Shown: positions 9,263 to 61,720, counted from the stretch's first letter. The stretch: 64,000 bases of DNA from a bacterium (GCA_024743115.1 JANSXC010000004.1:140113-204112), one strand, 5' to 3'. Notes: generated by a model from the sequence alone, not told the origin. Program-made: numbers and translations.

Positions 9263-9273
9263 GGCCGCGAACT

Positions 9274-27701: not shown

Positions 27702-27737
27702 ACGACAACGTGTCGTCGTGATACGACTACTTGTCGT
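27702..27737. promoter_or_regulatory. Two tandem operator-like dyads upstream of the BlaI-like gene
   Basis: ACGACA-acg-TGTCGT (27702-27716) is a perfect 6-bp inverted repeat. ACGACT-act-TGTCGT (27723-27737) matches 5 of 6. Their centres are 21 bp apart, and they lie 49-86 bp upstream of the start at 27653. On the minus strand the spacer between them reads TATCAC, which is -10-like. An adjacent palindrome, GTAGCC-tccggg-GGCTAC, lies at 27686-27703. Confidence 0.6.
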
Positions 27738-27862
27738 AATCGGCTAGCCCCGACTGTAGGGAAGTTCTGGCCGAATGGTTGGGAGGTCCTCGTAACACTC
27801 GATCGCAACGTGGTTTGTGGAATATGTCTTTCCTGCGTCAGGCCGTGACCTAGCCTGCTGGC

Positions 27863-39056: not shown

Positions 39057-39713
39057 TCACACCCTCAGCAGCAACTTGCGCAGGTGCTGGCAGGCGCGTC
39101 GTCGGGCTTCATGCACGCGCGCGGGCCGAACCTCCCAGCCCTTGGCAATCTCTCGCACGGGCTGATTGCCGCCGAAGTGCAATCGGACCAGCTCCCCGAG
39201 GGAGTGGCCCGGCACTGCCGGTTCGCGATCGAGTCGGGCAACGGCTTCTCGGACAGCCGTTGCCGAGCATGTTCGATCGAGCAACTCGAGACCATCGGGG
39301 GTGCGATCCGGCGTGTGGGACACCAGGTCGTTGGACAGATAGCAACGGCGGCATTCGCGCGCGCGCCGTCGGCCGAGCCGTGCCGCGATGTTGCGGGTGA
39401 TCCCGCGGACATACGCTGCCAGTCCGTGGCCGCGCCCGACATCCAGCCGGGACAGGGCGCCATTCGACCGCAGGCATTCGACGAACACGTCCTGGGTCGC
39501 ATCGTCGACATTCGCGTCCATCGTGGAGTCGCGCCAGAGTGCGCGCAGGTGACGCTTCACGATGGGCAGGTAGTGTTCGCAGAACGCGCAGACAGCTTGC
39601 CTGTCACCCGGCGTCAGGGTGTCGATGCCATCGTTCTCCTGTGGGGTCGCCGGGGTGGCGGCCGTCGTCGCCGCCTTCGTGGCAGCGTTGCTACAGCGAT
39701 TCGGGGGCTTCAT
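39057..39713 (-). CDS. Sigma-70 family (ECF-like) RNA polymerase sigma factor
   Basis: Inner start MKPPNRCSNAATK in ORF 39057-40070. The region-2-like segment has DDATQDVFVECL. The region-4-like HTH has LGELVRLHFGGNQPVREIAKGWEVRPARVHEARRRACQHLRKLL. Confidence 0.7.
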   Translation of the reverse strand: MKPPNRCSNAATKAATTAATPATPQENDGIDTLTPGDRQAVCAFCEHYLPIVKRHLRALWRDSTMDANVDDATQDVFVECLRSNGALSRLDVGRGHGLAAYVRGITRNIAARLGRRRARECRRCYLSNDLVSHTPDRTPDGLELLDRTCSATAVREAVARLDREPAVPGHSLGELVRLHFGGNQPVREIAKGWEVRPARVHEARRRACQHLRKLLLRV

Positions 39714-40951: not shown

Positions 40952-42130
40952 CTACTTGATCGGGGCCGCGAGCGGGCCGAGGTCGATCGGTTCGACCGCG
41001 CGGCTCTTGATCAGGTGCGACAGGTCCTCTTCCTCCAGCCATTCGTAGACCAGGTCGATCGGCGTGCAGAGGCCCATGTGCGGCACGACGACCGGGTTGC
41101 CCTTGCCGTGTGTGTAGATCTTCGAGAACACGCCGATGAGCTGGTGGGTGTCCGCGAGGTAGATGCCGCCACCGCTGTTGCCGAAGTAGGTCGGGGCGTT
41201 GATCATCCAGTAGTTGCTGCCGTTGAGCTCGTTCTGCAGCGAGCTGATCTGGCCGCTGCTCGGCACCGGATCGTTGCCGAGCGGGCAACCGACGGCGGTG
41301 ACGGGCTGCCAGACGCGGACGCGTTCGAACGTGTCCTTGCGTGAGATCACGTCGGCGACGAACGGCAGCTTCTTATCGGTGTAGATGCGAACGAGTGCGG
41401 CGTCGATCTTGGGCTTGCTCGCGACCATCTTGCCCTTCACGGTCAGGCGTTCGCCCGGCAGGTAGATGGTGACGTCGAACCCGGTCTTCGCGGCGCGCGG
41501 CGTATCGGCGAGGATGTTGCGCACGACGTGGTGACTCGTGAGCACGTAGCTCTCGGTGCGCTGCGTCTTCGGGTTCTTGTCGGAGAACACGAGCGTGCCC
41601 GAGCCGACGGTGTCGTCGCCGTTGAGCTGCACGGTCGGCAGCAGCATGGCCTTGGTCAGGCGCGACGGATCGCGGTGGATGCTGCTCGCGATCGTGGCGA
41701 TCGCGTTCTCGGTCTCGTCGAAGCGCAGGGCTGCGTCGCGCTGCTTGGTGCGCACCTCGTTGATGTAGGCGTCGACGAGCGCCTTCGTGCGCTCGAAGTC
41801 GGTCGACAGCTGGCTGCGGAAGACCTCGACCTCGCTCTTGGCCATTTGCAGCTCGGACTCGAGCTTCTTGGCCCGGGACGAGCCGGCCGAGGCGTTCTCG
41901 AGCTGGACCTCGAGCCGGTGCATGCGGGCCTCGGTCTCGGCGAGGATCTGCTGGCGCACGTCGTCGATCTTGCTCGAGTCGCCGACGATCCGGGCGACGT
42001 CGTCGAGCTTCTGTTCGAGGCCCGAGACGTCCCGCTGTTGGGTCTCGAGCCGGGCGATCTGGTGATGGAACGAGACCATCAGAACCAGTGCTGCCAGGCC
42101 GCAGAACACTTCGACCAGTGTGCGCTTCAT
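40952..42130 (-). CDS. Membrane-anchored trypsin-like serine peptidase with N-terminal coiled-coil stalk
   Basis: Inner start MKRTLVEVFCGLAALVLMVSF (TM) in ORF 40952-42340. About 130 aa of heptad-like sequence follows, then GSGTLVF...VLTSHHVV...DAALVRI...INAPTYFGNSGGGIY (His/Asp/GNSGG Ser of the chymotrypsin fold). Confidence 0.75.
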   Translation of the reverse strand: MKRTLVEVFCGLAALVLMVSFHHQIARLETQQRDVSGLEQKLDDVARIVGDSSKIDDVRQQILAETEARMHRLEVQLENASAGSSRAKKLESELQMAKSEVEVFRSQLSTDFERTKALVDAYINEVRTKQRDAALRFDETENAIATIASSIHRDPSRLTKAMLLPTVQLNGDDTVGSGTLVFSDKNPKTQRTESYVLTSHHVVRNILADTPRAAKTGFDVTIYLPGERLTVKGKMVASKPKIDAALVRIYTDKKLPFVADVISRKDTFERVRVWQPVTAVGCPLGNDPVPSSGQISSLQNELNGSNYWMINAPTYFGNSGGGIYLADTHQLIGVFSKIYTHGKGNPVVVPHMGLCTPIDLVYEWLEEEDLSHLIKSRAVEPIDLGPLAAPIK

Positions 42131-43667: not shown

Positions 43668-43763
43668 TCCCGTTGGAGCGGGACTTCCGACCCGAGCAGC
43701 CGGCGGCCGCGCGATTCGCGACCTCGGCGGGAAGAAAGTCGGCGGTCGTCCTTCTCAGGTGCT

Positions 43764-44363
43764 GTGTACGCCTTGAAGCTCACCACCGAGACCTCTGATA
43801 CCGACCTGATCGCGGCCGTCCTCGACGGCAGCGAGGCCGCGTTCGGCACGCTCGTGGATCGCTACAAGGACCGGCTGTTCCGGCTCCTGAGCCGCTACTG
43901 CCGGGATCAGGTCGAGTGCGAGGATCTGGCCCAGGACGTGTTCCTCAAGGTTTTCCGCAAGCTCGACACGTTCCAGGGCAGCTCGGCCTTCTTCACCTGG
44001 CTCTACCGCATCGCCGTCAACACGGCGACGGACCATCTGGCGCGGGCGAGCTCGCGGCGGTTGCGCCTGGTCGAGGACGTCGTGCTCGAGATCAACGAAC
44101 GCGATCACGATCCGGACAACCCGGCCGTGCCCGCGATGGCGGCGGAGCTCGCGACCGTGACTCGTCGCATCCTCGACAAGCTGCCCGAGAAGTACCGCAC
44201 GATCCTGATCCTGCGGGAGTACGAAGAACTCAGCTACAACGAGATCAGTGCGGTGCTCGAGTGCAATCTCGGGACCGTCGAGTCTCGCCTGTTCCGCGCC
44301 CGGCAGCGCTTCAAGGAAGCGCTCGAGCGCGACCATCCCGATCTGGTCCCCGCTCGGGGCTGA
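43764..44363 (+). CDS. ECF sigma factor (RpoE-like)
   Basis: ORF 43764-44363, GTG start. It contains DLIAAVLDGSEAAFGTLVDRYKDRLFRLLSRY, EDLAQDVFLKVFRKLDTFQGSSAFFTWLYRIAVN and LREYEELSYNEISAVLECNLGTVESRLFRARQRF. Confidence 0.92.
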   Translation: MYALKLTTETSDTDLIAAVLDGSEAAFGTLVDRYKDRLFRLLSRYCRDQVECEDLAQDVFLKVFRKLDTFQGSSAFFTWLYRIAVNTATDHLARASSRRLRLVEDVVLEINERDHDPDNPAVPAMAAELATVTRRILDKLPEKYRTILILREYEELSYNEISAVLECNLGTVESRLFRARQRFKEALERDHPDLVPARG

Positions 44364-44366
44364 GCC

Positions 44367-44840
44367 GTGGATGAATCACAGAAAGGTTTGACGATGCAAC
44401 TCTCCGACAACGATCAGCGGCTGCTGCAGAAGTATCGCGATGGCGAACTCGCGGGCAGCGAGGCCGAGGCGCTGAAGGCGCGGCTCAGCAACGAGCCGGG
44501 GCTCGCCGCCGGTCTCGCGGAGCTCGACGAGCTCGCGCGCGGGTTCGTGAGTGGGCGCGAGGCGACATTCGCGGCGCCGGCCGGTTTCACCGCCGGGCTG
44601 CTGGCCGAGGTGCGTCAGCTGCCTGACCGCATTCAGATGGCCGAAGCCGAGGTCGCAGGCTCCGCGCTGGTGATGTGCCGGCGCCTGCTGCTCGCAGCCG
44701 CGGTGTTGTTCGGGCTGGGGCTGTGCTGGCACGCCGGCCTGTTCGACAACGGCCGCAACGAGACGCTCGAGGCGGATCCGGCCGAAGTCCAGCGCGAGAT
44801 GGAGCGCCTCGACGAGCTCGTGCGCTCGCGGAAGCGCTGA
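44367..44840 (+). CDS. Single-pass membrane anti-sigma factor (putative)
   Basis: ORF 44367-44840 starts 4 nt after the sigma stop. The N-terminus LLQKYRDGELAGSEAEALKARL is anti-sigma-like. The TM segment is CRRLLLAAAVLFGLGLCW. ATG 44394 is an alternative start. Confidence 0.65.
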   Translation: MDESQKGLTMQLSDNDQRLLQKYRDGELAGSEAEALKARLSNEPGLAAGLAELDELARGFVSGREATFAAPAGFTAGLLAEVRQLPDRIQMAEAEVAGSALVMCRRLLLAAAVLFGLGLCWHAGLFDNGRNETLEADPAEVQREMERLDELVRSRKR

Positions 44841-44893
44841 GCGCCGGCGGCCAGGAGGGTCAGCCAGAAACCATCCGCGATGAACTACCCGCC

Positions 44894-45265
44894 ATGAAGC
44901 GCCTGTCGCTGTGGATCGTCGGGGCCGTCTGCGGCGGCTTCGCCGCGGGCGTCAACATCGGGCTCGTGGCGCCCGGGTGGCTCGAGCCCGAGGCGGCGAG
45001 CGCCCTCGATCAGGATGCGATGTTCATTCGCCAGATGGAGGCCGATTACGGCCTCGACGCGGAGCAGGTGCGGAGCCTGCGCCTCGTGATGCAGAATCGG
45101 CGCGAAGCCGAGCTGCAGGTCTTCACCCGGGCCGAGTTCTCGATGCTGCCGCTGCCGATCCAGCGCGAGTTGTTGGGGATTCGGGAGCAGGAAAAACAGC
45201 GGATCCTCGTCATTCTGGACGAGGAGCAGCGTGAGCGCTACGAACGCGTGACTTCAGTCAAGTAA
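44894..45265 (+). CDS. Membrane-anchored helical periplasmic protein (Spy/CpxP-like flavour, unassigned)
   Basis: In frame with ORF 44675-45265, start ATG 44894 (MKRLSLWIVGAVCGGFAAGVNIG). It then has ...GLDAEQVRSLRLVMQNRREAEL...EQEKQRILVILDEEQRERYERV. Confidence 0.5.
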   Translation: MKRLSLWIVGAVCGGFAAGVNIGLVAPGWLEPEAASALDQDAMFIRQMEADYGLDAEQVRSLRLVMQNRREAELQVFTRAEFSMLPLPIQRELLGIREQEKQRILVILDEEQRERYERVTSVK

Positions 45266-45277
45266 GAGAACAAACGG

Positions 45278-47206
45278 ATGGCCAGGATAATCGGAGTCGA
45301 CCCGGGCGACACGCTCGTCAAGATCGTCGAGCTCGACGGCAGCTACCGCAAGCCGCGACTCGTGCGCGTGCACAGCGAGGCGGCGACGCCGGCGGCGCCG
45401 CGGGCGGTGACCGTTGCCGCGGCGACGCGGAACGCGATCGATGACGGCATGAAGGGCGAGGTGCGCCTCGGTCACCCTTGCCGCGAAGCCGTTCTGCGGA
45501 CGCTGGATCTGCCGTTCAAGGGCAAGGATGCGCTGCGCAAGGTCGTCAAGGCCGAGGTCGAGGGCGAGATCCACGGCTACTCGGTCGACGACATGGTCGT
45601 CGACTTCCACGAGATCGGCGGCGGGCTCGACGACAGCACGCGCGTGCTCGTCGCGGCCGTGCCGAAAGAGGGGCTGCGTTCGCAGCTGGGTGCGCTCGAG
45701 GCCGCGGCGGTCGAGCCGGAGAGTGTCGACCTCGACACGATGGCGCTGTGGCGGGCGGCGGACTGCGTCGGTGCTTTCGAACCCGACGAGGATGACGACG
45801 GCAATCCCGAACCATCCGCGCTGACCGCGGTGCTCGAGGTCGGTTCGCGCAGTGTCAAGGTGCTGCTCGTCGACGGTGACCAGCTCGTCGACATGCGCGT
45901 GCTGCGCCTCGGCGGTGCGAGCGTCACCGAAGAGATCGCCAAGCGTCACACGTTGCCGGGCGACCTCGCGGCCGAAGCCGTGCAGGTCTGCAGTGAATCG
46001 GGCACGGACTGTGAGTTCGAGGTCGCGAGTGAGTTGCCTGCGAATCCGGGCGCGAGCGACGACGACGGCGATGCCCCGCTCGACGAGCCGGTCGACGTCG
46101 AGATGCGCTCGGTCACGGTCACGGCTGCGGAGGTCGAGTCCGTGCGCTCCGGGTTCTTGCGACGGCTCGCGCGTGAGCTCTTCCGCTACCTGGCCGCGAC
46201 CGGCAAGAGCAACATGCGGGCAGTCTGGGTGACCGGCGGCAGCTGCCGTCTGGCCGGCGTGCAGCAGGTTCTGACGGAGGTATTCGGTGTCGAGCCGCGC
46301 GAACTCAACGTGCTCGACCACGTCCAGCACGACCTCGACGAGGACGACGTGCAGGATCTCGGGCATCGGCTCGCGGTGGCGGTCGGGCTGGCGCTCGGCC
46401 CGCTCGGCGGTCCGGAGGGATTCGACATGCGTCAGGAGGACCTCGCGTTCACGCGTGGCTTCGAGCGCATCAAGTTCCCGCTCACGATCATGCTGATGGT
46501 CGGACTGCTCGCGCTGTTCGTCTTCGGTAACCACCAGCAGGCCAAGCTCAACCACCTGCACCTCGAGATCGGCAAGACGCACGTCGACGAGCGCGGCAAG
46601 ATCGGGTTCTTCGGCATGGTCAACTCGGCTCTGCGCGGCAACTGGTGGAAGGACCAGCGCAACTTCGCCTACGAGCGTTCGAAGGGGAAGATGTACAAGT
46701 GGAAGGACCTCGAGGACGAGCTCGTCAGCAAGCCGGTGCACGAGCGGCTGAAGATCATGCACGCGCGGCTCAAGGGCGTTGCTGACTACAAGCAGAAGCG
46801 CTCGGGCATCTACGAAGAGGTGTCGCTCGAATCGGGCGCCGCGGTGCTCGTGCGGTTCGCCGAGATCATGCAGCGCGTGGAGAGCGAGCTGCAGCGGCCC
46901 CTCGTGACCAAGATCTCGCTCAACATGAAGGGGGAGCGCCGCTCGCTGACCTTCCATCTCGCGCTGCGCGGGGCCGGCTTCCGTGGCCGGTCCGAGGCGC
47001 TTCGCACCGAGCTGCTCGCCGAGTTCAAACGCGAGGATTCGCCGTTCCTCGAGCCTCAGAACACCCGCCGCGTCTGGTTCGCGGAGAAACTCTTCATCGA
47101 TCAGGCCGAGACCAAGGTCGAAGGCTCCTACTTCGTCGTGACACTGGACATCAAGCCGACATTCGCGCCGTTCGGCGAGGGTGCCAGCGGGGGGCGCAAG
47201 AAATGA
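45278..47206 (+). CDS. PilM-PilN fusion / GspL-like protein (cytoplasmic actin-like domain, one TM, periplasmic domain)
   Basis: ORF 45278-47206, 642 aa. It contains ARIIGVDPGDTLVKIVELDG, LVAAVPKEGL...AVEPESVDLDTMAL and VLEVGSRSVKVLLVDGDQLVDMRVLRLGGASVTEEIA (the PilM/FtsA-type fold pattern). The TM segment is FPLTIMLMVGLLALFVFG, followed by about 230 periplasmic aa. Confidence 0.6.
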   Translation: MARIIGVDPGDTLVKIVELDGSYRKPRLVRVHSEAATPAAPRAVTVAAATRNAIDDGMKGEVRLGHPCREAVLRTLDLPFKGKDALRKVVKAEVEGEIHGYSVDDMVVDFHEIGGGLDDSTRVLVAAVPKEGLRSQLGALEAAAVEPESVDLDTMALWRAADCVGAFEPDEDDDGNPEPSALTAVLEVGSRSVKVLLVDGDQLVDMRVLRLGGASVTEEIAKRHTLPGDLAAEAVQVCSESGTDCEFEVASELPANPGASDDDGDAPLDEPVDVEMRSVTVTAAEVESVRSGFLRRLARELFRYLAATGKSNMRAVWVTGGSCRLAGVQQVLTEVFGVEPRELNVLDHVQHDLDEDDVQDLGHRLAVAVGLALGPLGGPEGFDMRQEDLAFTRGFERIKFPLTIMLMVGLLALFVFGNHQQAKLNHLHLEIGKTHVDERGKIGFFGMVNSALRGNWWKDQRNFAYERSKGKMYKWKDLEDELVSKPVHERLKIMHARLKGVADYKQKRSGIYEEVSLESGAAVLVRFAEIMQRVESELQRPLVTKISLNMKGERRSLTFHLALRGAGFRGRSEALRTELLAEFKREDSPFLEPQNTRRVWFAEKLFIDQAETKVEGSYFVVTLDIKPTFAPFGEGASGGRKK

Positions 47207-47826
47207 AACTCAGCCAGCTGGACCTCTACACCGGCCTCATCCTGCTCTGTGTGATCCTCCTGCCGGTCTGCGGTTGGTGGTGCTACCAGACCAATGAGGA
47301 GATCAAGCAGTGCGAGAAGGCGCGCCGCGACGCGACGCGCAGCAACGGTTTGCTCGAGAAGATCGGTGCGCTGCAGAAGAAGGTCGAGGTCGTCAACAAC
47401 AGCAACGCCACGCTGACCCGGACCCCGCGGCAGTTCTTCGAGACGCAGATCCTCGTGGCGGCCGCCAACGGCGGTCTCAGCGCCAACGACTTCGGTCTCG
47501 TCGGCCCGAAGGAAGAGCCGTTGACGATTCCCGGCAGTCGCCAGAAGGCGGTCGACCACGTGATGGCCGTCGACTGGAAGCGCAAGGATCTGCCGCTCAA
47601 GCTCGAACTGATCCAGGCGCTGCTCTGGAACTGCGAGTCGGGCGCCGGCATGGATCCAACGAAGCAGATGCAGTCCGTGTGGCGCCTGCGCACACTCGAC
47701 ATCACCAACATCTCCGACGGCAAGTCGCGCACGTTTGCGTCGTTCAAGACGCCGCCACCCGAGCTCGAGGATCGGTGGAGCATCACCAAGATGGAGTTCG
47801 CGCGCCGCGAACCGCGCAAGAACTGA
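47203..47826 (+). CDS. Bitopic membrane protein, GspM/PilO-like by position and topology
   Basis: ORF 47203-47826 shares an ATGA overlap with the upstream gene. It has an N-terminal TM (LYTGLILLCVILLPVCGWWCY), a short coiled coil and a periplasmic domain. I have no sequence motif for it. Confidence 0.45.
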   Translation: MKLSQLDLYTGLILLCVILLPVCGWWCYQTNEEIKQCEKARRDATRSNGLLEKIGALQKKVEVVNNSNATLTRTPRQFFETQILVAAANGGLSANDFGLVGPKEEPLTIPGSRQKAVDHVMAVDWKRKDLPLKLELIQALLWNCESGAGMDPTKQMQSVWRLRTLDITNISDGKSRTFASFKTPPPELEDRWSITKMEFARREPRKN

Positions 47827-47827
47827 C

Positions 47828-48334
47828 ATGCGTCGGTCGCTGCGATCGCGCGCGGCTGCCGCCGCGCTGGTTCTGCCCCTGATCGCGCCGATGGCCGGCG
47901 GCTGCGCGCCGCTCGTGCGGTACACCGGCGAACTCGTCGATTCCGAGTCCGGCCGCACGTGGTTCACGCGCGCACCGGCCGGCATCGGCGGCACGCTCGG
48001 CTTCCTCGTCGGCCTCCCCGTCGATGTCGTTGCGATGCCGGTCTCGTGGGCCGTCTACCGCAGCCAGCCGAAGGAGACGCGCGATGTCATGTCCGTGTTC
48101 CTGTTCCCCTCCTTCGTGCTCTGGAAGGTCGGCACGCTCGTGGGCTCCCCGTTCGATGCCGTCGAATGGGTCGTCTGGCGTTCCTGGAACGAGCAGCCCA
48201 TGACCCCCGCGCAGCGTGAGGCGATCGAGCGCGAGTGGGACGAGAAGGAATACAGCGAGTATCCCGTCAAGCCGATCTACCCGGCGACCGGTGGTACCGG
48301 CGAGCGCGTGCCGCCACCCGACGGGTCGCGCTGA
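47828..48334 (+). CDS. Lipoprotein (YceK/YidQ DUF1375-like flavour)
   Basis: In frame with ORF 47735-48334. ATG 47828 lies 1 nt after the previous stop. The lipobox is LIAPMAGGC. It contains GFLVGLPVDVVAMPVSWAVY and VGTLVGSPFDAVEWVVW. Confidence 0.55.
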   Translation: MRRSLRSRAAAAALVLPLIAPMAGGCAPLVRYTGELVDSESGRTWFTRAPAGIGGTLGFLVGLPVDVVAMPVSWAVYRSQPKETRDVMSVFLFPSFVLWKVGTLVGSPFDAVEWVVWRSWNEQPMTPAQREAIEREWDEKEYSEYPVKPIYPATGGTGERVPPPDGSR

Positions 48335-48418: not shown

Positions 48419-49447
48419 ATGAGTGAGTCGGCGTTGAAGCTGCGGCGGCTCGTCGAGCACGTGCTCGGTAAAGGGCGCGAACTGCCGCTCGCGATGTTGC
48501 TCGAGCAGCTCGTGGCGGTGCGCGACCTGCGGCGGGTGGCACGCAAGTTCGATGTGTCGCCGAAGGGCTTTCGCGTCGACAAGGCACCCGCGAAAGTGCT
48601 CGCGGCGCAGCTCGCCGAATTGTCCGACTCGCAGCAGCTCGACGAGGTGCTCGGGTTGTTGCGGCCGGCTACCGACGCCAGCGAGAGCAAGAGCGACGTC
48701 GGTGTCGACGCGGTGGCCGAGGCCAGGAAGGAGGCCGAAGAGCTGCTGCGTCTGCGCGAGAGCGAGTTGGCGCGGTTGCGTGACGAGCTCGACCGGGCGC
48801 GCGACGTGAGTCAGCGGGCGGGCGAACGTGAGACCCTGCTCCTGCGCAAGCTGGAGCGGCTCGAACTCGAACTCGTGGCCGAACGGCGCGACCGCGAAGC
48901 CGCCGCGAGAGCGCAGGAGCGGCCCGTAGTCGACCAGAGCCAGCAGGTCCGGGCACTCGAACGCCGGGTGCGGGAGCTGGAGGACGAACGCGACGGCTTC
49001 GTGGCCGCGGACGAGGCGCTGCGGCGGCAGCTGGCGTGGAATCGTTCGCAGCTGCGCGAGGTCGAGGCCGAGGTCAAGGAGCTCGAAGGGCTCATCCCGA
49101 AGAGTCGGCGGCGCAAGCAGAAGCCGCTGCCGCCCGCGCCGCCACCCGAGGAGTCGCGGCGCGTGCTCGTGCCGTACTTCCTGCCGTCGTTCTACAAGTC
49201 GCTCGATGGCAAGGATCGTCGCGCGGTGGAGCGCGCCGTGCAGGCGATCCTGCTGTTTTGTACCGAGGGTCACTCGTACCCCGGGCTCGAGGTCAAACAG
49301 CTCGGCGGCCAGGACACCTGGAGCTTGCGCGCGTCGCTCGATCTGCGGGTCTACTTCCGGCCGCTGCCCGACGGCGACGTCGAAGTACTCGAACTGGCCG
49401 ACCGCGAGGACCAGCGCACGACCCTGCGCCGGCTCAAGGAGAAGTAG
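48419..49447 (+). CDS. Three-part protein: unassigned N-domain, ~130-aa coiled coil, basic/Pro linker, C-terminal RelE/ParE-like domain
   Basis: ORF 48419-49447, 342 aa. Residues 248-335 read RVLVPYFLPSFYKSLDGKDRRAVERAVQAILLFCTEGHSYPGLEVKQLGGQDTWSLRASLDLRVYFRPLPDGDVEVLELADRED. This follows the RelE/ParE toxin pattern (F..f.k.l..L....r..i...i..l......pg...k.L.g....w.lR.g.d.Rv.y......v.vl.v..R). Confidence 0.55.
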   Translation: MSESALKLRRLVEHVLGKGRELPLAMLLEQLVAVRDLRRVARKFDVSPKGFRVDKAPAKVLAAQLAELSDSQQLDEVLGLLRPATDASESKSDVGVDAVAEARKEAEELLRLRESELARLRDELDRARDVSQRAGERETLLLRKLERLELELVAERRDREAAARAQERPVVDQSQQVRALERRVRELEDERDGFVAADEALRRQLAWNRSQLREVEAEVKELEGLIPKSRRRKQKPLPPAPPPEESRRVLVPYFLPSFYKSLDGKDRRAVERAVQAILLFCTEGHSYPGLEVKQLGGQDTWSLRASLDLRVYFRPLPDGDVEVLELADREDQRTTLRRLKEK

Positions 49448-50163
49448 TGCGCGGCGGGGCCCCGCGTGCGCCGGTCGCGCTGACGCCGGAGTCGCCGGCG
49501 CGTTTTCCGGATCCGCGGCTCTACGACGGGCAGGGGCTCGTCGCGGTCGGAGGTGATCTCAGCCAGGCGCGCCTGCTCGCGGCCTACCGCAGGGGCATTT
49601 TTCCGTGGTATGACATCGGCTACCCCCCGATGTGGTGGAGTCCGGACCCGCGGGCGATCCTCGAGCCGCGTGAGCTCCACGTCGGCCGGAGTCTGCGGCG
49701 GGTGCTCGAACGCGGCGGGTTCGAGCTGGCCTGGAACACCTGTTTCGAGCGGGTCATGGGCGAATGCGGCCGTGGTCGCGACGAGGGCACCTGGATCATG
49801 CCGGAGATGGTCCAGGCCTACGCCCGGCTGCACCGCGCCGGCCATGCCCACAGTCTCGAGGTCTTCGAGGCGGGGGAGCTGGTCGGAGGGATCTATGGGG
49901 TGCAGCTCGGGGCCGCCTTCGCCGCCGAATCCAAGTTCCACCGCCGCACGGACATGTCGAAGGTCGCGCTGGTGGCCCTCGTGCGGTCGCTGGCGGCGGC
50001 GGGGATCGAGCTCCTCGACGTGCAGTTCGTCACGGACCACCTCGCGCGGCTGGGGGCGCGGGAGATCCCGCGGCGGGAGTATCTGGCGCGACTCGCGGTC
50101 GCCGCGGCCAAGACCGTGGATCTCGGGGGCCTGGTCCCCACGGTCACGCCGCCGCGCGTCTGA
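49447..50163 (+). CDS. aat: Leucyl/phenylalanyl-tRNA--protein transferase
   Basis: In frame with ORF 49036-50163. GTG 49447 overlaps the preceding TAG by 1 nt (TAGTG). It contains LLAAYRRGIFPWYD, PMWWSPDPRAIL, HSLEVFEAGELVGGIYGV and FAAESKFHR. Confidence 0.9.
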   Translation: MRGGAPRAPVALTPESPARFPDPRLYDGQGLVAVGGDLSQARLLAAYRRGIFPWYDIGYPPMWWSPDPRAILEPRELHVGRSLRRVLERGGFELAWNTCFERVMGECGRGRDEGTWIMPEMVQAYARLHRAGHAHSLEVFEAGELVGGIYGVQLGAAFAAESKFHRRTDMSKVALVALVRSLAAAGIELLDVQFVTDHLARLGAREIPRREYLARLAVAAAKTVDLGGLVPTVTPPRV

Positions 50164-50306
50164 CGGCGGTCACGGGGCCGGATCGGGTTTGTGGCCGCGA
50201 TAGTGGCCGGGTTTGTAGGAAGTGCCCGGCTGACACCGCGTCCATAGCTCGGCTCTGTGCTACGTTGCGCGACCCCGGGAGACCCCCCTCCACCGAACCG
50301 AACGCG

Positions 50307-53300
50307 ATGAAACTGCGACTCGCTCTGCCAGGCCTGGTTCTTCTCAGCTTCACGACGCCCCTCGTGGCGCAGACCCCGATGGAGATCGAGATGATGCGCG
50401 CGGCTGCGGCGGCGGGCATGCCCCCAGGGGCCGTGATCCAGTCCGGCGACGGCCCGGCCAGCGCTGCCTCCGGTGGCGACAGCGAAGCCGACAAGGCGGC
50501 CAAGGCGATGCTCGCGAAGTGGAAGAAGCTCGTCTTCGACCGTCGCCCCTCGTCGGTGCTCGCGGCCTGGGCCGCGCCTGAGCTGAAGCCCTACGATCCC
50601 GCCGAAGAGAAGAAGAAGATCGACGACGACCTGCGCGAGATGGTCCTCGAGCAATTCGGGGTCGATCCGACCAAGGTCGAGGCGCCGAAGGCCGAGACCA
50701 AGAAGCCGACCGATACGGCAGCGAAGGCTGCGGCGCAGCAACTCGAGGCGAAGACGCTCCAGCGCGAGCTCGAGATGTTCCAGCGCGATGTCACGTTGTC
50801 ACGTTGGGACAAGGTCGCCGAGTTCTTCGGCGCGCTGCCCGAGAAGGAGCAGAAGGGCGCGTACGAGCACTTCCTCAAGCAGTTGCTCAAGCACCCGCGG
50901 ACAGCAGCGGATCGCCGCGTGCCCTCGAATCTGCAGGAGAAGAACCGGTTCTCGTTCGGTGAAACACTGATCCTCGCCGGCATGGCGCCGGGTGGGTTCG
51001 ACAAGAAGCAGGTCAAGCTGCTCGCGCCGCTCGTGCGACGGGCGCTCGACGACGGCAACGTCGTCGAAGAACTCATTCGGCTGCTCGGCGAAGAGATCGT
51101 GTTGCCCGAGGAGGAGCAACGGCTCGATCGTCGCGAGGCCGCGATGCTGCTGTCGGCGCTCAAACAGGAGCGGGAGCTCGGCGCGTTCCTGCCCTCGCCC
51201 GAAGAGGCCGAGGAGAAGAACGATCGCGAGGCCCTCAATCTGCTCGCGCGCCACAACCTCGCGATGTTCGCGAAGGAGAAGCGCAATCAGTTTCTCGAAG
51301 CGGCATGGCGGGTGACGCAGGCGGTGCTCAAGAAGGGCGAGGTCGAGAAGGAGGAGAAAGAGGAGGCGCTGCTGCGAGCCGTCGACCTCGCGCCGCGGGT
51401 GAGCGAAGAGCTCGGCCCGAAGTGGCTCGCGCAGAGCTTCACGGAGCAGCCTGTGCGCGGCATGGAGATCATCGCGACGATCGGCGGCGAAGCCGCGAAG
51501 GGCTTTCAGAAGCACGCGAAGAACATCGACTACCGCAGCAAGGTCCTCAAGCTGCAGAAGGTCGCCGTCGATGCGCTCCTCGAATCGGCGCCGCAGCTCG
51601 CGGAGGAATGGCGGCCGACGCTCGCGCTGCTCGCTGCCGGTTGGATCGTCGAGGCGTCGTACACCAACCAATACAGCAAGACGTCGCGCTACGGCCCGAT
51701 GATGCAGCGCGACTCGTTCGGCAACATCTTCTGGTCGTCGCAGCGCATGGGGGGCGGCGGTCAGGTGTCCGCGGTCGAGCCGGCCGACATGATCGAGGCG
51801 CAGCCGGGCGGGGCGTGGGTCACGATGCTCAACGACGAGCTGCGGCCGCATTTCCAGGCCGTGTCCGCGCAGCTGTTCCTCAAGGTGCAGGAGGACGAGA
51901 AGGCGTTCCCGTTCATCGAGCAGCTGGCCGAGGTCAACCCGCGCAAGGCCAAGGATCTCGCCGACGAGTTCCTGCGTGTCTGGATGCGCAACAACAACCC
52001 CAACGTCAACAACAACCGCACCAACCCGTACATGTTCATCTACGGGTTCGACCGGCGCGCCGGCGGCATTCCGCTCACGCGCAGCAAGCAGGAGCGCAAC
52101 CTCGAGGCACTGTCGCGCTGGGTCGCGCGGTTGCGCAAGCTGCCGATCGGCGGCGTGGATCAGAAGCTGCTGAGTCAGGCCTTCGTCGCCGCCCACAGCA
52201 CGGCCGAGGTCTACCAGCTCGAGACGATCGAGAACGTGTTCGGCGACGTGGGTGATCTCGAGCCCGTGTTGCTCGGTGAGCTGCTGTCGAAGATGCGCGC
52301 CAACCTCGCGACCGTGTGGCGTCGCCCCGACGTTCAGGAGGAGAAGAAGACCCGGCGCCGCGAGAAGGAGATGATGGCCGAAGTCATGAAGGGCTACGCC
52401 ACAGCGCTCAACGTCGCACGTGACGTCATGACCAGGCAGGGCGATCACTGGGCGCTGCTGTCGCTCACGGGTGCGATCCTTCACGACCAGAACAATTTCG
52501 CCAAGGAGCAGAAGCGCGACAGCAACTTCTCCGAGGCGCGCAAGGGTGCGTTCGCGCTCTTCCAGTCCGCCGCGGAGGATTACGTCGAGCGGGCGCCGGA
52601 TCTACGGCTGGACGAAGAGACGATCTCCGCGTTCGACACCTGGTTCTATGCCGCGCTGGGCGCCTGCGATCTCGGCGTCGTCGACGAAGAGACGGTCGTG
52701 GCGAAGAGCCAGCTGCCGCTCATCAAGCAGGCGCTCGCGAGTTTGCCGAAGGGCAGTCGCGAGCGGCACGAGTCGATGTTCGCGAACGCGCTGTTCACGC
52801 GCATGTCGTCGGTGCGGCCGCAGATCAAGTTCCGCTATCTCGAGGCCGGCTTCGAGATCGTTGGCGACCATCCGCAGGCTGCCGAGGCGCGCAAGGTCTG
52901 GGACTACTACGCCGACCTCACGCACGAGCTCAGGCTCGAGGTCGTCGTCGACGGGCCCACCGAGGTCGCGACCGGCGAGTTCGGCGTGCGCGTCGACATC
53001 GTCCACACGGATGCGATCGAGCGCGAGAGCGGCGGCTTCGCGAAGTACGCGCAGAACCAGAACAACATGAGCTACGCCTACAACTATGGGCGGCCGCTCG
53101 AGAACTACCGCGATCGCTTCGACGAGGCGGTGCGCACCGCGCTCAGCGAGCACTTCGAGGTGCTGTCCGTGACGTGGAACGGCGAGCAGATGGAGAGCGA
53201 GTCGACCGATCAGGTCGGCTGGCGGCGGACGCCGTACGCCTATTTGCTGCTGCAGGCGCGCGGGGAAGAGGTCGATCGCATTCCAGCGATCCAGATGGAC

Positions 53301-54101
53301 TTCGACTTCCTCGACACGTCGGGCTACGCGATCCTGCCGATCGGCTCGGCGCCCGTCGCGATCGATGCATCGACTGCGGCCACCACGCCGCGGCCCTACC
53401 AGAACCTCAAGGTGACGCAGCTGCTCGACGAGCGGCGCGTCGACGAAGGCAAGCTGACGCTCGAGATCAAGGCCAAGGCCGAGGGTCTCGTGCCGGATCT
53501 CGACGACTTCCTCGCGATGGAACTGCCGGGTTACAGGATCGACAAGTCCGACGACCAGGGAGCGACGATTTCGAAGTTCGCCGATGACCAGCTCTTCGTC
53601 GAGACCGAGCGCGTCTGGCTGCTGTCGCTCGTGCCGGAAGAGGGCGACGACTTCGGGGAGGAGTTCGTCTTTGCCCGGCCGACGGCCGAAGACGTCGAGG
53701 CGGTCTACCAGCGCTACGCCGATGCGGACCTGCAGACCGTGGACCCGCGGATCGCGCTCGCGCAGCCCGGGCCCGAGGACGTGCCCGTCTGGTTCTGGGT
53801 GCTCATCGCGGTGGCGCTGGTGCTGTTCAGCATCTGGTTCTTCGCCGTGCAGCCGGGCGGTGGTGGTGCAACGACGGCCGACGGCGGCGTCCAGTTGCCG
53901 GGCACGATCTCGGCGTTCTCGGTGCTCGGTTTACTGCGGCAGCTCGAGACCGGTGCGCCGCTCACGGCGCCTGAGCGCGAAGAGCTCACCGCCACGATCA
54001 CCCGGATCGAGGCGGTCCACTTCGCGCGGTCCCAGGACCCCGACCTCGATCTCGAAGCCGTCGCCCGCGATTGGCTCGGCCGCGCGAATCGCCGCGCCTG
54101 A
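50307..54101 (+). CDS. 1264-aa secreted/membrane-anchored protein; the C-terminal third is BatD-like by architecture
   Basis: In frame with ORF 49764-54101, start ATG 50307 (MKLRLALPGLVLLSFTTPLVAQ, signal). It has a Lys/Glu-rich N-region and a long helical middle. The C-terminal part has beta-rich segments (LRLEVVVDGPTEVATGEFGVRVDIVH, IPAIQMDFDFLDTSGYAILPIG, KLTLEIKAKAEG). A TM (VWFWVLIAVALVLFSIWFFAV) and a ~80-aa tail follow. Confidence 0.6.
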   Translation: MKLRLALPGLVLLSFTTPLVAQTPMEIEMMRAAAAAGMPPGAVIQSGDGPASAASGGDSEADKAAKAMLAKWKKLVFDRRPSSVLAAWAAPELKPYDPAEEKKKIDDDLREMVLEQFGVDPTKVEAPKAETKKPTDTAAKAAAQQLEAKTLQRELEMFQRDVTLSRWDKVAEFFGALPEKEQKGAYEHFLKQLLKHPRTAADRRVPSNLQEKNRFSFGETLILAGMAPGGFDKKQVKLLAPLVRRALDDGNVVEELIRLLGEEIVLPEEEQRLDRREAAMLLSALKQERELGAFLPSPEEAEEKNDREALNLLARHNLAMFAKEKRNQFLEAAWRVTQAVLKKGEVEKEEKEEALLRAVDLAPRVSEELGPKWLAQSFTEQPVRGMEIIATIGGEAAKGFQKHAKNIDYRSKVLKLQKVAVDALLESAPQLAEEWRPTLALLAAGWIVEASYTNQYSKTSRYGPMMQRDSFGNIFWSSQRMGGGGQVSAVEPADMIEAQPGGAWVTMLNDELRPHFQAVSAQLFLKVQEDEKAFPFIEQLAEVNPRKAKDLADEFLRVWMRNNNPNVNNNRTNPYMFIYGFDRRAGGIPLTRSKQERNLEALSRWVARLRKLPIGGVDQKLLSQAFVAAHSTAEVYQLETIENVFGDVGDLEPVLLGELLSKMRANLATVWRRPDVQEEKKTRRREKEMMAEVMKGYATALNVARDVMTRQGDHWALLSLTGAILHDQNNFAKEQKRDSNFSEARKGAFALFQSAAEDYVERAPDLRLDEETISAFDTWFYAALGACDLGVVDEETVVAKSQLPLIKQALASLPKGSRERHESMFANALFTRMSSVRPQIKFRYLEAGFEIVGDHPQAAEARKVWDYYADLTHELRLEVVVDGPTEVATGEFGVRVDIVHTDAIERESGGFAKYAQNQNNMSYAYNYGRPLENYRDRFDEAVRTALSEHFEVLSVTWNGEQMESESTDQVGWRRTPYAYLLLQARGEEVDRIPAIQMDFDFLDTSGYAILPIGSAPVAIDASTAATTPRPYQNLKVTQLLDERRVDEGKLTLEIKAKAEGLVPDLDDFLAMELPGYRIDKSDDQGATISKFADDQLFVETERVWLLSLVPEEGDDFGEEFVFARPTAEDVEAVYQRYADADLQTVDPRIALAQPGPEDVPVWFWVLIAVALVLFSIWFFAVQPGGGGATTADGGVQLPGTISAFSVLGLLRQLETGAPLTAPEREELTATITRIEAVHFARSQDPDLDLEAVARDWLGRANRRA

Positions 54102-54133
54102 CCCTTCCTTTCTCGTTCGCTCGCTGATCCCCA

Positions 54134-55138
54134 ATGACTGCCCAAGATGCCCCCGCCACGGCTCGGTTTACCGAGACCCGTGAGTTCCTCGCTCAGATTC
54201 GTAACCGAGTCAACAAGACGGTCGTCGGCCAGGAAGTGGTCATCGAGCGCGCGCTGATCGCGATGCTGACCTCGGGTCACCTGCTGCTGCAGGGCGTTCC
54301 CGGTCTCGCGAAGACGCTGCTCGTCGCGGCGGTCAGCAAGGCGATCGATCTGCAGTTCTCGCGCATTCAGTTCACGATCGACCTGTTGCCGTCCGACATC
54401 CTCGGTTCGGAGATCCTCGATCAGAAGACCAACGAGTTCCGCACCCACAAGGGGCCGATCTTCACCAACCTGTTGCTCGCCGACGAGATCAACCGCGCGG
54501 CGCCGAAGGTGCAGAGCGCGCTGCTCGAGGCGATGCAGGAGCGTCGGGTCACGATTGGCAACGAGAACTATGCGTTGCCGGCACCGTTCCTCGTGATCGC
54601 GACGCAGAACCCGGTCGAGCAGGCCGGCACGTTCGAGCTGCCCGAGGCGCAGCTTGACCGCTTCATGCTGCTGCACCGGCTCGAGTATCTCGAGCCGGAG
54701 GACGAGAAGGAAGTTCTGCGCCGCAACATGAAGCTCGGAGTCCGCCGCGAGGGCAAGGGCGCGGTCGCGCGTACCGAGTTCGATGCGATCGAGGACACGA
54801 TGAGGGGTAGTACCGAGAAGCTCGTGCAGGCGATGGAGGATGTGCAGGAAGTGCACGTCAGTGAGGCGTTCCTCGAGCACACGATCGAGATCGTCAACCG
54901 CACGCGCAACCACCCGAAGCTCGAACTCGGCTGCAGTCCGCGCGCGGGCATCTCGCTCGTCAAGGCGTCGCGCGCCCGCGCGCTGATCCACGGCCGCGAC
55001 TACGTGCTGCCTGAGGATCTGTTCGCGCTCGCGGAGGACGTCGTGCTGCACCGCATTCGTCTGACCTACGAGGCGATCGCCGAGGGCTTCACGGGCCCGC
55101 AGGTCCTGCAGGAGATCCTCTCCGAGACCGCGCAATGA
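54134..55138 (+). CDS. MoxR family AAA+ ATPase
   Basis: ORF 54134-55138. It contains VVGQEVVIERALIAMLTSGHLLLQGVPGLAKT (Walker A), LLADEINRAAPKVQSALLEAMQE (Walker B/sensor) and ATQNPVEQAGTFELPEAQLDRF. Confidence 0.95.
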   Translation: MTAQDAPATARFTETREFLAQIRNRVNKTVVGQEVVIERALIAMLTSGHLLLQGVPGLAKTLLVAAVSKAIDLQFSRIQFTIDLLPSDILGSEILDQKTNEFRTHKGPIFTNLLLADEINRAAPKVQSALLEAMQERRVTIGNENYALPAPFLVIATQNPVEQAGTFELPEAQLDRFMLLHRLEYLEPEDEKEVLRRNMKLGVRREGKGAVARTEFDAIEDTMRGSTEKLVQAMEDVQEVHVSEAFLEHTIEIVNRTRNHPKLELGCSPRAGISLVKASRARALIHGRDYVLPEDLFALAEDVVLHRIRLTYEAIAEGFTGPQVLQEILSETAQ

Positions 55139-56031
55139 GTGTGGCCGGCCATTCCAGGTCCGGCCGTGCTGGTGCGGCAGGACGACTGGGTTCCCTCGAC
55201 CCGCTGCCCGCGAAGAAGTTCGTCATCGGGGTGCAGAAGCTGGCCGACGATCTGACCTACGGTCTCGATGGTTCGCGCTACTGCGGCTCGGGCATCGACT
55301 ACGTGCAGTCGCGGCCCTACCAGGAAGGCGACTCGGTCAAGGCCATCGACTGGCGCGTCACGGCGCGGTCGGGCAAGCATCACGTCAAGGAGTACGAGGC
55401 ACAGCGGCGTTACCCGGCGTGGTTCGTCATCGATACGTCCGCGTCGATGACCGTCTCGTCGACCCGCATCAGCAAGTACGAACTCGCGCTGCGCACGGCC
55501 GGTGGCCTCGCGCTCGCGTGTCTCGACCGCATGAGCCCGGTCGGGGTGCTCGGGGCCGGTGCGAGCGACCTGCGCATCGAACCGAGCCTCGCGAAGGACC
55601 TCGTGCTGCAGTGGCTGCTGCGGTTGCGCGACTACCGGCTCGACGAGCCGACGCGCATCGTTCGCCGGCTTGCGGAGCTGCGGCCGACGCTGAAGGCCCG
55701 CTCGCTGATCTTCGTCTGCAGCGATCTGCACGAGCCCGAAGCGGTGCACTCGATCGCGATGCTCGCGCAGCAGCACGAGGTCGCGGTGCTGCAGTTTCAG
55801 GACCCGGCCGAGGTGACGCTGCGCGGCGCCGGTTTCCTGCGCGCGCAGGAGGCGGAGACGGGTCGCGGTTTCGTGACTCACGGTGGTCGCCAGGTGATGG
55901 ATCAGGAACGCATCGCGGGCGAACTGCGTCGGGGTGGCGTCGGCCACCTGTTGATCCGCACGGACCAGCCGTTTCTGCCCAAGCTGCGCCTCTTCCTGCG
56001 GTCGCGCGGCATGTCTCGGGGGGCGCGATGA
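55135..56031 (+). CDS. DUF58 domain protein (MoxR partner)
   Basis: ORF 55135-56031 shares an ATGA overlap with moxR. It contains SRPYQEGDSVKAIDWRVTARSGKHHVKEYE, the DUF58 signature, and then FVIDTSASM. Confidence 0.9.
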   Translation: MSVAGHSRSGRAGAAGRLGSLDPLPAKKFVIGVQKLADDLTYGLDGSRYCGSGIDYVQSRPYQEGDSVKAIDWRVTARSGKHHVKEYEAQRRYPAWFVIDTSASMTVSSTRISKYELALRTAGGLALACLDRMSPVGVLGAGASDLRIEPSLAKDLVLQWLLRLRDYRLDEPTRIVRRLAELRPTLKARSLIFVCSDLHEPEAVHSIAMLAQQHEVAVLQFQDPAEVTLRGAGFLRAQEAETGRGFVTHGGRQVMDQERIAGELRRGGVGHLLIRTDQPFLPKLRLFLRSRGMSRGAR

Positions 56032-56930
56032 GTTCCACTCGCAGCACGGGGCCCAGCATGTGGGGACGGATGCCGAGTTGTCTGGTGCGCCTGTTCGGGG
56101 CCGCACTCTTCGTTGTCGCGACCGCCGTCGCGCAGGTTCAGAACGATCGCGAATCGACGGTCGGGATGCGCGCGCGCATTCACGAGCTCGTCTTGCCGGG
56201 ATCCGAGGTGACGGTCAAACCGACGGGTCACGACACGCCCGTCGTCGTCCGCATCACGGCGAAGCGACCGCACGGTGACGCGTTCCGCTACGATCTCGAA
56301 TGGGTGGCGCTCGAAGTGGGCTCGCACGACTTGCGGGATTACCTCGCGCGCAAGGACGGTTCGCCGCTCGAGGGGTTGCCAGAGCTGACGGTGGAGGTCG
56401 CCGCCGTGCGGCCGGCGGATCAGACCGAGCCCGTCGATCCCACGCCGATCCGCCCGGAGAACACCGGCGGCTACACCGTGCAGCTCGTAGTCGCGACGGT
56501 GATCTGGATCATCGGTTTGCTCGCGATCCTGTTCGTCGGCCGCAAGCGCAAGGCGGTAGCCCGCGCCACGGAAGCACCGCCGACGCTCGCGGATCGGCTG
56601 CAGCCGTTCGTTGCCGCGGCCGCCGACGGTAGCGCGACCGATGCCGAGAAAGCCGAGCTCGAGCGGCTGCTCGTCGCGTTCTGGCGCGAGAGGCTCGAAC
56701 TCGAAGGCCTCAAGGCGGACCGGGCGATTGCGAAGATCCGCGAGCACGACGAGGCGGGGCAGCTCGTGCGTCAGCTCGAGGCGTGGTTGCACATGCCCGA
56801 GCCGCCGCAGGCCGTCGACGTCGAGGGGCTGCTGGCGCCGTATCGCAGCGTCTCGGCCGCGGAGTTCGATGAGTCGCGTGTCGGCGTCGCCGCCGGAGCG
56901 GCTACCGGAGTGGGCGGGAGGCGGGCCTGA
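56028..56930 (+). CDS. Membrane protein of the Bat-type operon (DUF4381-like position and topology)
   Basis: In frame with ORF 55419-56930. ATG 56028 forms an ATGA overlap. It has a signal or anchor segment, a mid TM (VVATVIWIIGLLAILFVG) and a helical tail (AEKAELERLLVAFWRERLELEG). Confidence 0.55.
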   Translation: MSSTRSTGPSMWGRMPSCLVRLFGAALFVVATAVAQVQNDRESTVGMRARIHELVLPGSEVTVKPTGHDTPVVVRITAKRPHGDAFRYDLEWVALEVGSHDLRDYLARKDGSPLEGLPELTVEVAAVRPADQTEPVDPTPIRPENTGGYTVQLVVATVIWIIGLLAILFVGRKRKAVARATEAPPTLADRLQPFVAAAADGSATDAEKAELERLLVAFWRERLELEGLKADRAIAKIREHDEAGQLVRQLEAWLHMPEPPQAVDVEGLLAPYRSVSAAEFDESRVGVAAGAATGVGGRRA

Positions 56931-61042: not shown

Positions 61043-61159
61043 CGGGATCGCGGACGTGTGGTTCCGTGGGATGGGTAGACCACTCCGAATCGGGATGCGG
61101 CGTTGGGAGTAACGCGGATTCTCCGATTCTGCCGGGGGCAGGCAGTTTCGCGGGCTGCC

Positions 61160-61699: not shown

Positions 61700-61720
61700 G
61701 GTCTTGCTATTGTAGCAGGC

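Follow-up and report, generated by a model that had tools for sequence, protein, structure and literature searches.

A six-gene cluster was analysed in a 64,000-nucleotide stretch (GCA_024743115.1, JANSXC010000004.1:140113-204112; hereafter the window) from the genome of an uncultured planctomycete. The genome has a guanine-plus-cytosine (GC) content of 67%, and the window stays at 65-70% GC all along. The cluster lies on the plus strand at positions 43764-48334 and encodes an extracytoplasmic function (ECF) sigma factor, an anti-sigma factor and four further proteins, here called g3, g4, g5 and g6, among which g4 carries domains resembling those of the inner-membrane platform of type II secretion systems (T2SS) and type IV pili (T4P). 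Codon-position GC supported all six open reading frames (ORFs) as true genes (0.85-0.90 at the third position, GC3; 0.38-0.54 at the second, GC2). A first inspection made from the sequence alone (the sequence-only reading) had described six co-directional genes with tiny gaps or overlaps, and this held for strand, coordinates and all junctions but one: the sigma gene stops at 44363 and the anti-sigma gene opens with a GTG at 44367, leaving 3 nt between them rather than 4. An independent gene caller chose an alternative ATG at 44394 as the anti-sigma start. The spacing is 53 nt from the anti-sigma gene to g3 (44894) and 12 nt from g3 to g4 (45278), g4 and g5 share an ATGA overlap (47203-47206), and g5 and g6 are separated by 1 nt (47826/47828). 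No terminator-like sites were found between the cluster genes, and sigma-70 promoters and intrinsic terminators within the cluster did not exceed the expectation from shuffled sequence.

The sigma factor (43764-44363, plus strand) has 199 aa. Pfam profiles recognised Sigma70_r2 at 6e-19 (68 bits, cut-off 24), Sigma70_r4_2 at 9e-18 (64 bits, cut-off 25.7) and Sigma70_ECF at 4e-9. With regions 2 and 4 present and 112 bits against TIGR02937 (cut-off 42.9), the protein is an ECF (group 4) sigma-70 factor. Against the RpoE equivalog TIGR02939 it scored 164 bits, under the cut-off of 236, and the protein encoded downstream had no RseA match in Pfam or NCBIfam. The earlier label of an RpoE-like ECF sigma factor therefore stands as regards the ECF class, whereas the likeness to RpoE is one at superfamily level only.

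Directly 3' of the sigma gene, the anti-sigma gene (44367-44840, plus strand) encodes 157 aa from the GTG at 44367 or 148 aa from the ATG at 44394. Hydropathy placed one transmembrane helix at residues ~87-118, near the C terminus, which leaves a short periplasmic tail of ~35 aa and agrees with the single-pass topology proposed at first. Matches to domains of class I (ASD/zf-HC2) anti-sigma factors were sub-threshold (NF052375 at 2.4e-6, 27.7 bits against 100; zf-HC2 at E 0.047), and the H-x3-C-x2-C residues, as read from the sequence, are absent. At the same position in two of the more distant loci described below (L062 and L066), the protein has the Pfam domain zf-HC2; when the L062 protein (9079-9528) was compared with window positions 44394-44840, it was seen to keep the zinc motif (HLVRCDPC). 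It seems that in the window's clade the anti-sigma factor no longer has its zinc site.

The largest protein of the cluster is g4, with 642 aa, and the NCBI record of the exact protein reads "MAG: pilus assembly protein PilM [bacterium]" (MAG, metagenome-assembled genome). It had been given an actin-like cytoplasmic domain, one transmembrane helix and a periplasmic domain, and each of these parts was recovered, the first as PilM by sequence and the last as a GspL-type fold by modelling. The cytoplasmic domain (residues 1-376; 45278-46405, plus strand) is an actin-like (ASKHA) domain of the PilM type, matching PF11104 PilM_2 at 8e-21 with 74.7 bits, above the cut-off of 27. A family profile built from 35 members aligned g4 residues 2-376 with residues 13-371 of T. 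thermophilus PilM (2YCH) at 7e-15. In this alignment the nucleotide-binding motifs pair as GiDpG/GLEIG, vdlGa/LDIGA and tGgas/LGGGS (GxDxG, DxGA and GG(G/A)S); the phosphate and adenosine motifs of the actin fold are kept in the g4 family. A match to NF045709 (Amuc_1101) at 5e-14 spans residues 44-225 with 52 bits, under a cut-off of 650, and covers model positions 52-221 of 608, which leaves g4 outside the Amuc_1101 family.

Such a domain could also belong to a protein outside pilus and secretion systems altogether, namely a cytoskeletal protein with a membrane anchor that is FtsA-like or otherwise actin-like and might act in cell division in a phylum with atypical division. Weak FtsA matches were indeed obtained for g4 (PF14450 at 0.0019, TIGR01174 at 0.011), and some relatives have precomputed FtsA or MreB_Mbl Pfam matches besides PilM_2. 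The PilM profiles scored far better, however (8e-21 for PF11104 and 5e-22 for TIGR01175), and the best solved relatives are PilM proteins, the family profile also finding Pseudomonas PilM at 1e-7 and FtsA at merely 0.19. The periplasmic part of g4 resembles GspL domains as well, and an FtsA-like identity was discarded on the profile scores as highly improbable.

Hydropathy located a single transmembrane helix in g4 at residues 395-420, followed by ~220 periplasmic residues (421-642; helix and domain together at 46460-47206, plus strand). An AlphaFold2 (AF2) model of residues 373-642 (predicted local distance difference test, pLDDT, 86.5) shows a long helix or coiled coil, an insertion and a terminal ferredoxin-like domain of alpha-beta-beta-alpha-beta-beta order. 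When the periplasmic model was compared with the PDB by Foldseek, GspL domains ranked best: EpsL (2w7v) was the top match (E 0.012, probability 1.00, TM-target 0.58), and the C-terminal domain of PulL (5hl8, TM-target 0.64; 8a9w, 0.66) and XcpY (6ghu) were also found. Overall, the GspL matches had probabilities of 0.80-1.00 and TM-target values of 0.56-0.66 with modest E-values of 0.01-0.2, and PilO (2rjz) ranked weaker than the GspL domains. By AF2 and Foldseek, g4 thus has the bitopic topology and the periplasmic ferredoxin-like domain of GspL. PilM in the usual sense is soluble, clamps a separate PilN and belongs to a pilMNOPQ operon, whereas g4 continues into its own transmembrane helix and periplasmic domain. 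Judged by profiles and predicted structure, g4 joins a PilM-type domain to a membrane and periplasmic part of the GspL/PilN type, and the description that suits it best is a PilM-GspL(N) fusion, as in several type IV filament systems.

The gene overlapping g4 at its 3' end, g5 (47203-47826, plus strand; NCBI locus tag NXI31_06770), encodes a 207-aa bitopic protein with an N-terminal transmembrane segment (residues 1-30 by hydropathy), a coiled coil and an alpha/beta domain. Its AF2 model (pLDDT 78) has helices at residues 8-45, 50-69 and 75-87 followed by the elements E, E, H, E, (H), E (E, strand; H, helix), an order compatible with the double alpha-beta-beta of PilO and GspM after a transmembrane helix and coiled coil. 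Assignment to GspM or PilO by sequence was rejected, as Pfam (across 30 family members), a PDB profile search and hhalign were all negative: the PDB search returned only chance-level matches to major histocompatibility complex (MHC) proteins, and hhalign, used to test g5 and g4 for PilN/PilO-like paralogy, found no similarity between them. NCBIfam likewise gave no T2SSM or PilO match, and no Amuc_1100 entry was among the top 50 PDB fold matches of g5. Because the sequence searches were negative and the fold match is weak, the gene position and topology are what make g5 a candidate GspM/PilO-like partner of g4. These two features, with the bitopic character, are also what stands of the original assignment.

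Two small proteins complete the cluster. The 123-aa g3 (44894-45265, plus strand; GC3 0.88) has an N-terminal membrane anchor (transmembrane helix at residues 4-27 by hydropathy) and a helical C-terminal domain, and so corresponds to the small anchored helical protein seen at first. No Pfam or NCBIfam family was found for the window protein or for five orthologues; a Spy/CpxP/LTXXQ-type identity, considered for the repeats GLxxxQ and LDxxQR, was dropped, as neither database supported it for any of these proteins. The 168-aa g6 (47828-48334, plus strand) has a lipobox with Cys26 (..AGGC), hydrophobic segments at residues 8-31, 51-77 and 87-106 by hydropathy, and an acidic, Trp-rich C-terminal tail, and it too has no Pfam or NCBIfam family. 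The tail is conserved, and identities of 45-80% are the highest among g3, g5 and g6. The description of g6 as a lipoprotein holds for the lipobox but is incomplete, and the protein is not PilP-like, because two more hydrophobic segments (51-77 and 87-106) and the short acidic tail fill it; g6 looks like a lipobox-bearing membrane hairpin protein. We regard g3 and g6 as small envelope accessory proteins of no known family.

A seventh gene, g7 (48419-49447, plus strand), encodes a 342-aa cytoplasmic coiled-coil protein with no transmembrane helix, and accompanies the module in the window's clade. Its database matches were weak and of the coiled-coil type only, and whether it is part of the functional unit is uncertain. 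Its conserved C-terminal, alpha/beta-looking region (...WSLRASLDLRVYFRPLPDGDVEVLELADRED...) recalls RelE/ParE toxins by eye, with no database support. A toxin-like or defence role was discarded, as the PDB sequence search and PADLOC returned coiled-coil noise.

Upstream of position 43764, where the sequence-only reading had suggested that an ECF promoter be sought, such a motif was found and proved to be conserved across loci. It lies at 43730-43757 (plus strand) as GGAAGAAA-N-CCTTCTCA, ending 6 nt 5' of the sigma GTG; written as spaced elements, the motif is GGGAAGAA-N17-CCTTCCAAG, with its end 6-8 nt before the sigma start codon. Alignment of the ribBA-sigma spacers of about 50 loci gave the consensus CGGGAAGAA, 18-19 nt from GAAG to TC, CC[TC]TCCAAGG and 6-8 nt to the start codon. 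A loose regular expression for the motif had a single match in the 64-kb window, at the site itself, and all 39 of its 39 matches in 920 kb of related loci were directly upstream of the sigma gene. The motif is also present in the distant loci L059 and L062, with a variant (GGAATAA ... CGTCGAA) in L066, and the same expression detected no extra copies before g3, g4, g7 or the divergent protease gene. ECF promoters have a GGAAC-like -35 and a CGTC-like -10 element. The pattern of the motif is that of ECF promoters, and the sigma factor encoded directly downstream is its probable reader. Because the motif ends 6-8 nt before the GTG or ATG start, the sigma mRNA would be leaderless or nearly so. 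In ~50 loci the -10-like element lies so near the sigma start that no ribosome-binding site fits. Given that there is no second copy of the motif and no terminator-like site between the genes, the simplest reading is a single autoregulated transcript running through g6 and possibly g7, which we infer from these sequence features.

About 60 loci from Planctomycetota MAGs retain the string of sigma, anti-sigma, g3, g4 and g5, and such MAGs are the source of all relatives. An alignment-based scan with one genome per species yielded 53 loci, all from Planctomycetota MAGs, and g4 alone as the query found nothing. In this first tier, tblastn showed one gene order and orientation throughout, in all of the 53 loci long enough to cover it: protease (minus strand), ribBA, sigma, anti-sigma, g3-g7, aat, a large secreted protein and MoxR. 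The arrangement was seen in several metagenome loci as well. Identities were 63-88% for sigma, 42-68% for g4, 35-60% for g5 and 30-56% for g3. As order and orientation recur in all adequate loci, the arrangement is not due to chance. The housekeeping neighbours are equally syntenic, however, so first-tier synteny alone is no proof of an operon. The sigma and anti-sigma genes could be functionally unrelated to g4-g6 and merely inherited beside them in a lineage of low rearrangement, with an unrecognised promoter of their own serving g4-g6. Housekeeping genes with no functional tie to the cluster are syntenic across the first tier as well, ribBA on the upstream side and aat with the MoxR-DUF58-VWA genes on the downstream side, ribBA is still near in second-tier loci, and no sigma motif lies directly 5' of g3 or g4, all of which would fit such an inherited neighbourhood.

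More distant relatives bear on this question. An exhaustive profile search returned 4415 relatives, 180 of them below 1e-30. Among them, a second tier comprises proteins 550-630 aa long whose similarity to g4 is confined to the PilM domain, linker and transmembrane helix, beyond which they diverge. In L059/L060 both flanks differ and yet sigma through g7 are all kept; hidden Markov models (HMMs) recovered g3 (2e-15), g6 (1.6e-43) and g7 (7e-33) in L059, g7 being retained there although the rest of the downstream neighbourhood has changed. Second-tier loci L062 and L066 have sigma, a zf-HC2 anti-sigma, g3, a PilM protein with a transmembrane helix and a different extension, and a ~185-aa bitopic protein, followed by unrelated genes; g6 and g7 are absent. 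Fragments in L061 and L065 are consistent with the second-tier gene order. The g3 HMM matched in L061 (6e-17) and L062 (1.6e-8), so that g3 is kept in both tiers, and the g5 HMM matched weakly in the same two loci (1.7e-10 and 1.7e-5); the second-tier bitopic proteins have an (F/L)xWNxE motif in common with g5. Since the five genes are kept in L059/L060 and in second-tier loci with changed flanks, the five-gene core is conserved beyond the synteny block. The linkage to the sigma factor is not an oddity of one genome but the conserved state in a large Planctomycetota group. The flanks change in L059/L060, L062 and L066 while the order from sigma to g5 stays intact, neighbouring genes in the window overlap or are spaced 1-53 nt apart, the spacing is similarly tight in those distant loci that were examined (from overlap up to about 90 nt), and there is no terminator-like site between the genes. 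We therefore consider an unrelated, inherited neighbourhood improbable.

The remaining parts of a secretion or pilus machine were then sought. Pfam searches with about 60 ORFs, which together cover the window, gave no match to a T2SE ATPase, T2SSF (GspF/PilC), a secretin or a pilin. A prepilin motif of the G-F-T-L-I-E type was absent from every frame of the window, no pilQ or other pil gene occurs in the 64 kb, and an Rfam scan returned one tRNA only. The initial statement that no other T2SS or T4P component lies within the 64 kb was borne out by the Pfam scan and motif search. Neither the window nor the sequence up to 10 kb from the module in about 60 related loci yielded GspE, F, D, G or K, so the T2SS-cluster context usual for GspL is missing in both.

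A third tier is represented by P0299 in L063, a PilM_2 plus GspL_C protein without a sigma gene nearby. It belongs to a mini-cluster (7686-12246) of a GspK-like (T2SSK) gene, a 180-aa anchored protein, the PilM_2 plus GspL_C protein and a 179-aa bitopic protein, which corresponds to the canonical gspK-L-M order of T2SS. No GspE ATPase, GspF or GspD/secretin was found within 10 kb in L063, the only locus of a relative with a pseudopilin-like neighbour. The mini-cluster, in a distant high-GC relative, adjoins hopanoid-type genes and is another dispersed T2SS-like gene set. Still remoter relatives combine PilM_2 with GspL_C/T2SSL or with PilN, and one is named "general secretion pathway protein L".

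The reading we prefer, with a probability of roughly one half, is that the cluster is an ECF-driven operon whose platform proteins, of the GspL/GspM type, serve a type IV filament machine with genes elsewhere in the genome. It is supported by the domain identities, by the continuity with true GspL proteins, and by L063, where a GspK-like gene lies beside the pair and the rest is not adjacent. In such an operon, a signal, presumably from the envelope, would release the sigma factor from the single-pass anti-sigma factor. The sigma factor would then transcribe from the GGAAGAA-N17-C(C/G)TCCAA promoter abutting its own start codon, giving a leaderless mRNA. The sigma level would rise and, by read-through across the 1-53-nt junctions, so would g3-g6 and perhaps g7. 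The platform pair, g4 with g5 as its putative partner, would dock with the ATPase, GspF/PilC, secretin and (pseudo)pilins of a T2SS-like or T4P machine whose genes would lie elsewhere, and assembly of the machine would thereby become conditional on the signal. A divergent gene upstream of ribBA (40952-42130, minus strand) encodes a trypsin-like HtrA-type protease with an N-terminal transmembrane helix and coiled coil, in which no PDZ domain was found, and its place next to the module is conserved in almost all loci of the first tier. Encoded so close to an ECF/anti-sigma pair, this envelope protease might play a role in cleaving the anti-sigma factor.

Several results weigh against a platform serving a distant machine. 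Beyond PilM_2, the g4 matches stay under the family cut-offs, with 78.3 bits under 133 for TIGR01175 pilM (5e-22), 14.6 bits under 25.5 for PF05134 T2SSL (0.022) and 17.1 bits under 65 for TIGR01709 gspL (0.0022). None of the 30 g5 family members matched T2SSM (PF04612) or PilO (PF04350) at E up to 1, and the Foldseek match of g5 to the PilO core 5uvr was weak (E 0.36, probability 0.47), level with phage neck proteins. By hydropathy and the lack of a Pfam match, g6 does not seem to have the periplasmic beta-sandwich of the PilP/GspC type. Genes for an ATPase, GspF/PilC, secretin, prepilin or prepilin peptidase were found neither in the window nor, across about 60 loci, at distances of up to 10 kb from the module. 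Finally, five genes conserved deeply as a closed unit fit a self-contained function equally well.

The main rival, which we consider less likely, is that the PilM/GspL-like and GspM-like pair has been co-opted from pilus or secretion work and, with g3 (and g6), forms a stand-alone ECF-controlled envelope scaffold or is part of the sensing apparatus that controls the anti-sigma factor, with no ATPase, secretin or pilin involved. The closed and deeply conserved five-gene unit would fit this, as in the second tier g5 closes the unit and the genes next to it are unrelated and on the opposite strand; so would the lack of type IV filament genes within 10 kb in all of the about 60 loci. The periplasmic part of g4 is ~2x the size of a GspL/PilN domain and has a lineage-specific insertion, and it differs between the first and second tiers while the PilM domain, linker and transmembrane helix are kept. 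Precedents for co-option are the flagellar cage (PMC10823254) and the Akkermansia MUL2 locus with Amuc_1101 (PMC13174399), and the anti-sigma periplasmic tail of only ~35 aa would suit the sensing form. On the other side, the PilM nucleotide-binding motifs and overall domain are kept in g4, and the closest remoter relatives are ordinary PilM plus GspL_C proteins, one of them beside a GspK-like gene. Because the machine genes are also dispersed in L063, the one T2SS-like locus examined, the absence of neighbouring machine genes is weak evidence. A stricter version, in which the five-gene core is a self-contained signalling and scaffold device without any pilus or secretion machine and g4 acts as an anti-sigma-controlling sensor or a stress-induced scaffold, appears unlikely to us. 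If this is true, type IV filament platform proteins would be put to a new use, and ECF sigma factors would have gained a partner of a new kind.

The cluster was compared with known systems. As in GspL-GspM of T2SS (EpsL/EpsM, PulL/PulM, XcpY/XcpZ), a single polypeptide combines an actin-like domain, a transmembrane helix and a periplasmic ferredoxin-like domain, and the overlapping next gene encodes a bitopic protein of about 200 aa. Differences are that the cytoplasmic domain of g4 is of the PilM rather than the T2SSL type, that its periplasmic part of ~220 aa has a long coiled coil and an insertion, that g5 is without a T2SSM match, and that gspC-K, gspD, gspE, gspF and gspO are not nearby while an ECF sigma/anti-sigma pair precedes the genes. 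With PilM-PilN-PilO-PilP of type IVa pili (T4aP), the cluster shares a full-length PilM domain match and the order of actin-like, bitopic and lipobox proteins; it differs in that g5 is without a PilO match, g6 is a predicted hairpin and not a PilP beta-sandwich, and no pilQ follows. As the PilM and PilN parts are fused in g4, there is no free PilN N-terminal peptide. MSHA pili have a fused PilM/PilN-like protein, a PilO-like protein and a small lipoprotein (MshI-MshJ-MshK), whose genes belong to a complete pilus operon that also encodes the secretin, ATPase and pilins. The likeness of g4-g6 to MshI-J-K is one of gene layout, drawn from general knowledge. The fusion in g4 is the same solution as in GspL, MshI or Amuc_1101.

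The Akkermansia MUL2 locus (amuc_1099-1102) is a small locus of otherwise uncharacterised envelope genes with the PilM-like Amuc_1101 (PMC13174399). It likewise has a protein of ~600 aa with an N-terminal PilM domain in the PVC superphylum, and differs in including the pilin-like amuc_1102 and in having no sigma factor. The flagellar cage is built from type IV pilus proteins, with PilM/N/O co-opted (PMC10823254). ECF32/HrpL, as presented in the main text of the ECF classification, is an ECF sigma factor genomically tied to type III secretion genes (Casas-Pastor et al. 2021, PMC7826278), which is also a conserved association with trans-envelope machine components; full secretion gene sets occur there, whereas only the platform pair is present here. 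In that main text, the supplements lying outside the search, PilM/GspL was not found as the context of any ECF group.

The gene families, and the PilM label of g4 at NCBI, were already known. New is the conserved wiring, in a large uncultured lineage, of the platform pair to an ECF sigma/anti-sigma pair with a defined, predicted leaderless promoter. Work on GspL/GspM and PilM/N/O normally treats them as invariable components of whole secretion or pilus operons. Should the pair act for a distant T2SS or T4P, assembly would be gated by a signal, with control on platform proteins and not on pilins or the ATPase, and the promoter motif would allow the regulon to be traced. If it is stand-alone, it would join a short list of co-opted platform proteins and connect ECF signalling with a membrane protein of the actin fold. 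In both cases, testable annotations are provided for four conserved hypothetical proteins, g3, g5, g6 and g7.

Other features of the window were also recorded. Downstream of g7, the block at 49447-58839 contains aat (Leu/Phe-tRNA protein transferase), a secreted protein of about 1270-1445 aa without a Pfam domain, and then MoxR AAA, DUF58, an unknown gene and two VWA proteins (Bat/MoxR-VWA-type); it is syntenic in most first-tier loci. On the minus strand at 58856-61732, the gene of a second ECF sigma factor (61160-61732) is followed by that of a 767-aa protein without a Pfam domain. A Ser/Thr protein kinase with TPR repeats (61676-64000, plus strand) is divergent from this sigma gene and runs past the window end. 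Another gene at about 39057-39713 (minus strand; L001 3780-4436), ~4 kb upstream of the module, encodes a 218-aa protein with a weak Sigma70_r2 match, so that with the module sigma factor and that at 61160-61732 there are three sigma-like genes in the 64 kb. A BlaR1-type M56 peptidase/sensor (about 990 aa) and a BlaI/Penicillinase_R repressor gene at 24508-27743 (minus strand) form a separate envelope-signal system. Two tandem RlaP genes (RNA repair pathway DNA polymerase beta family) are located at 13093-14658.

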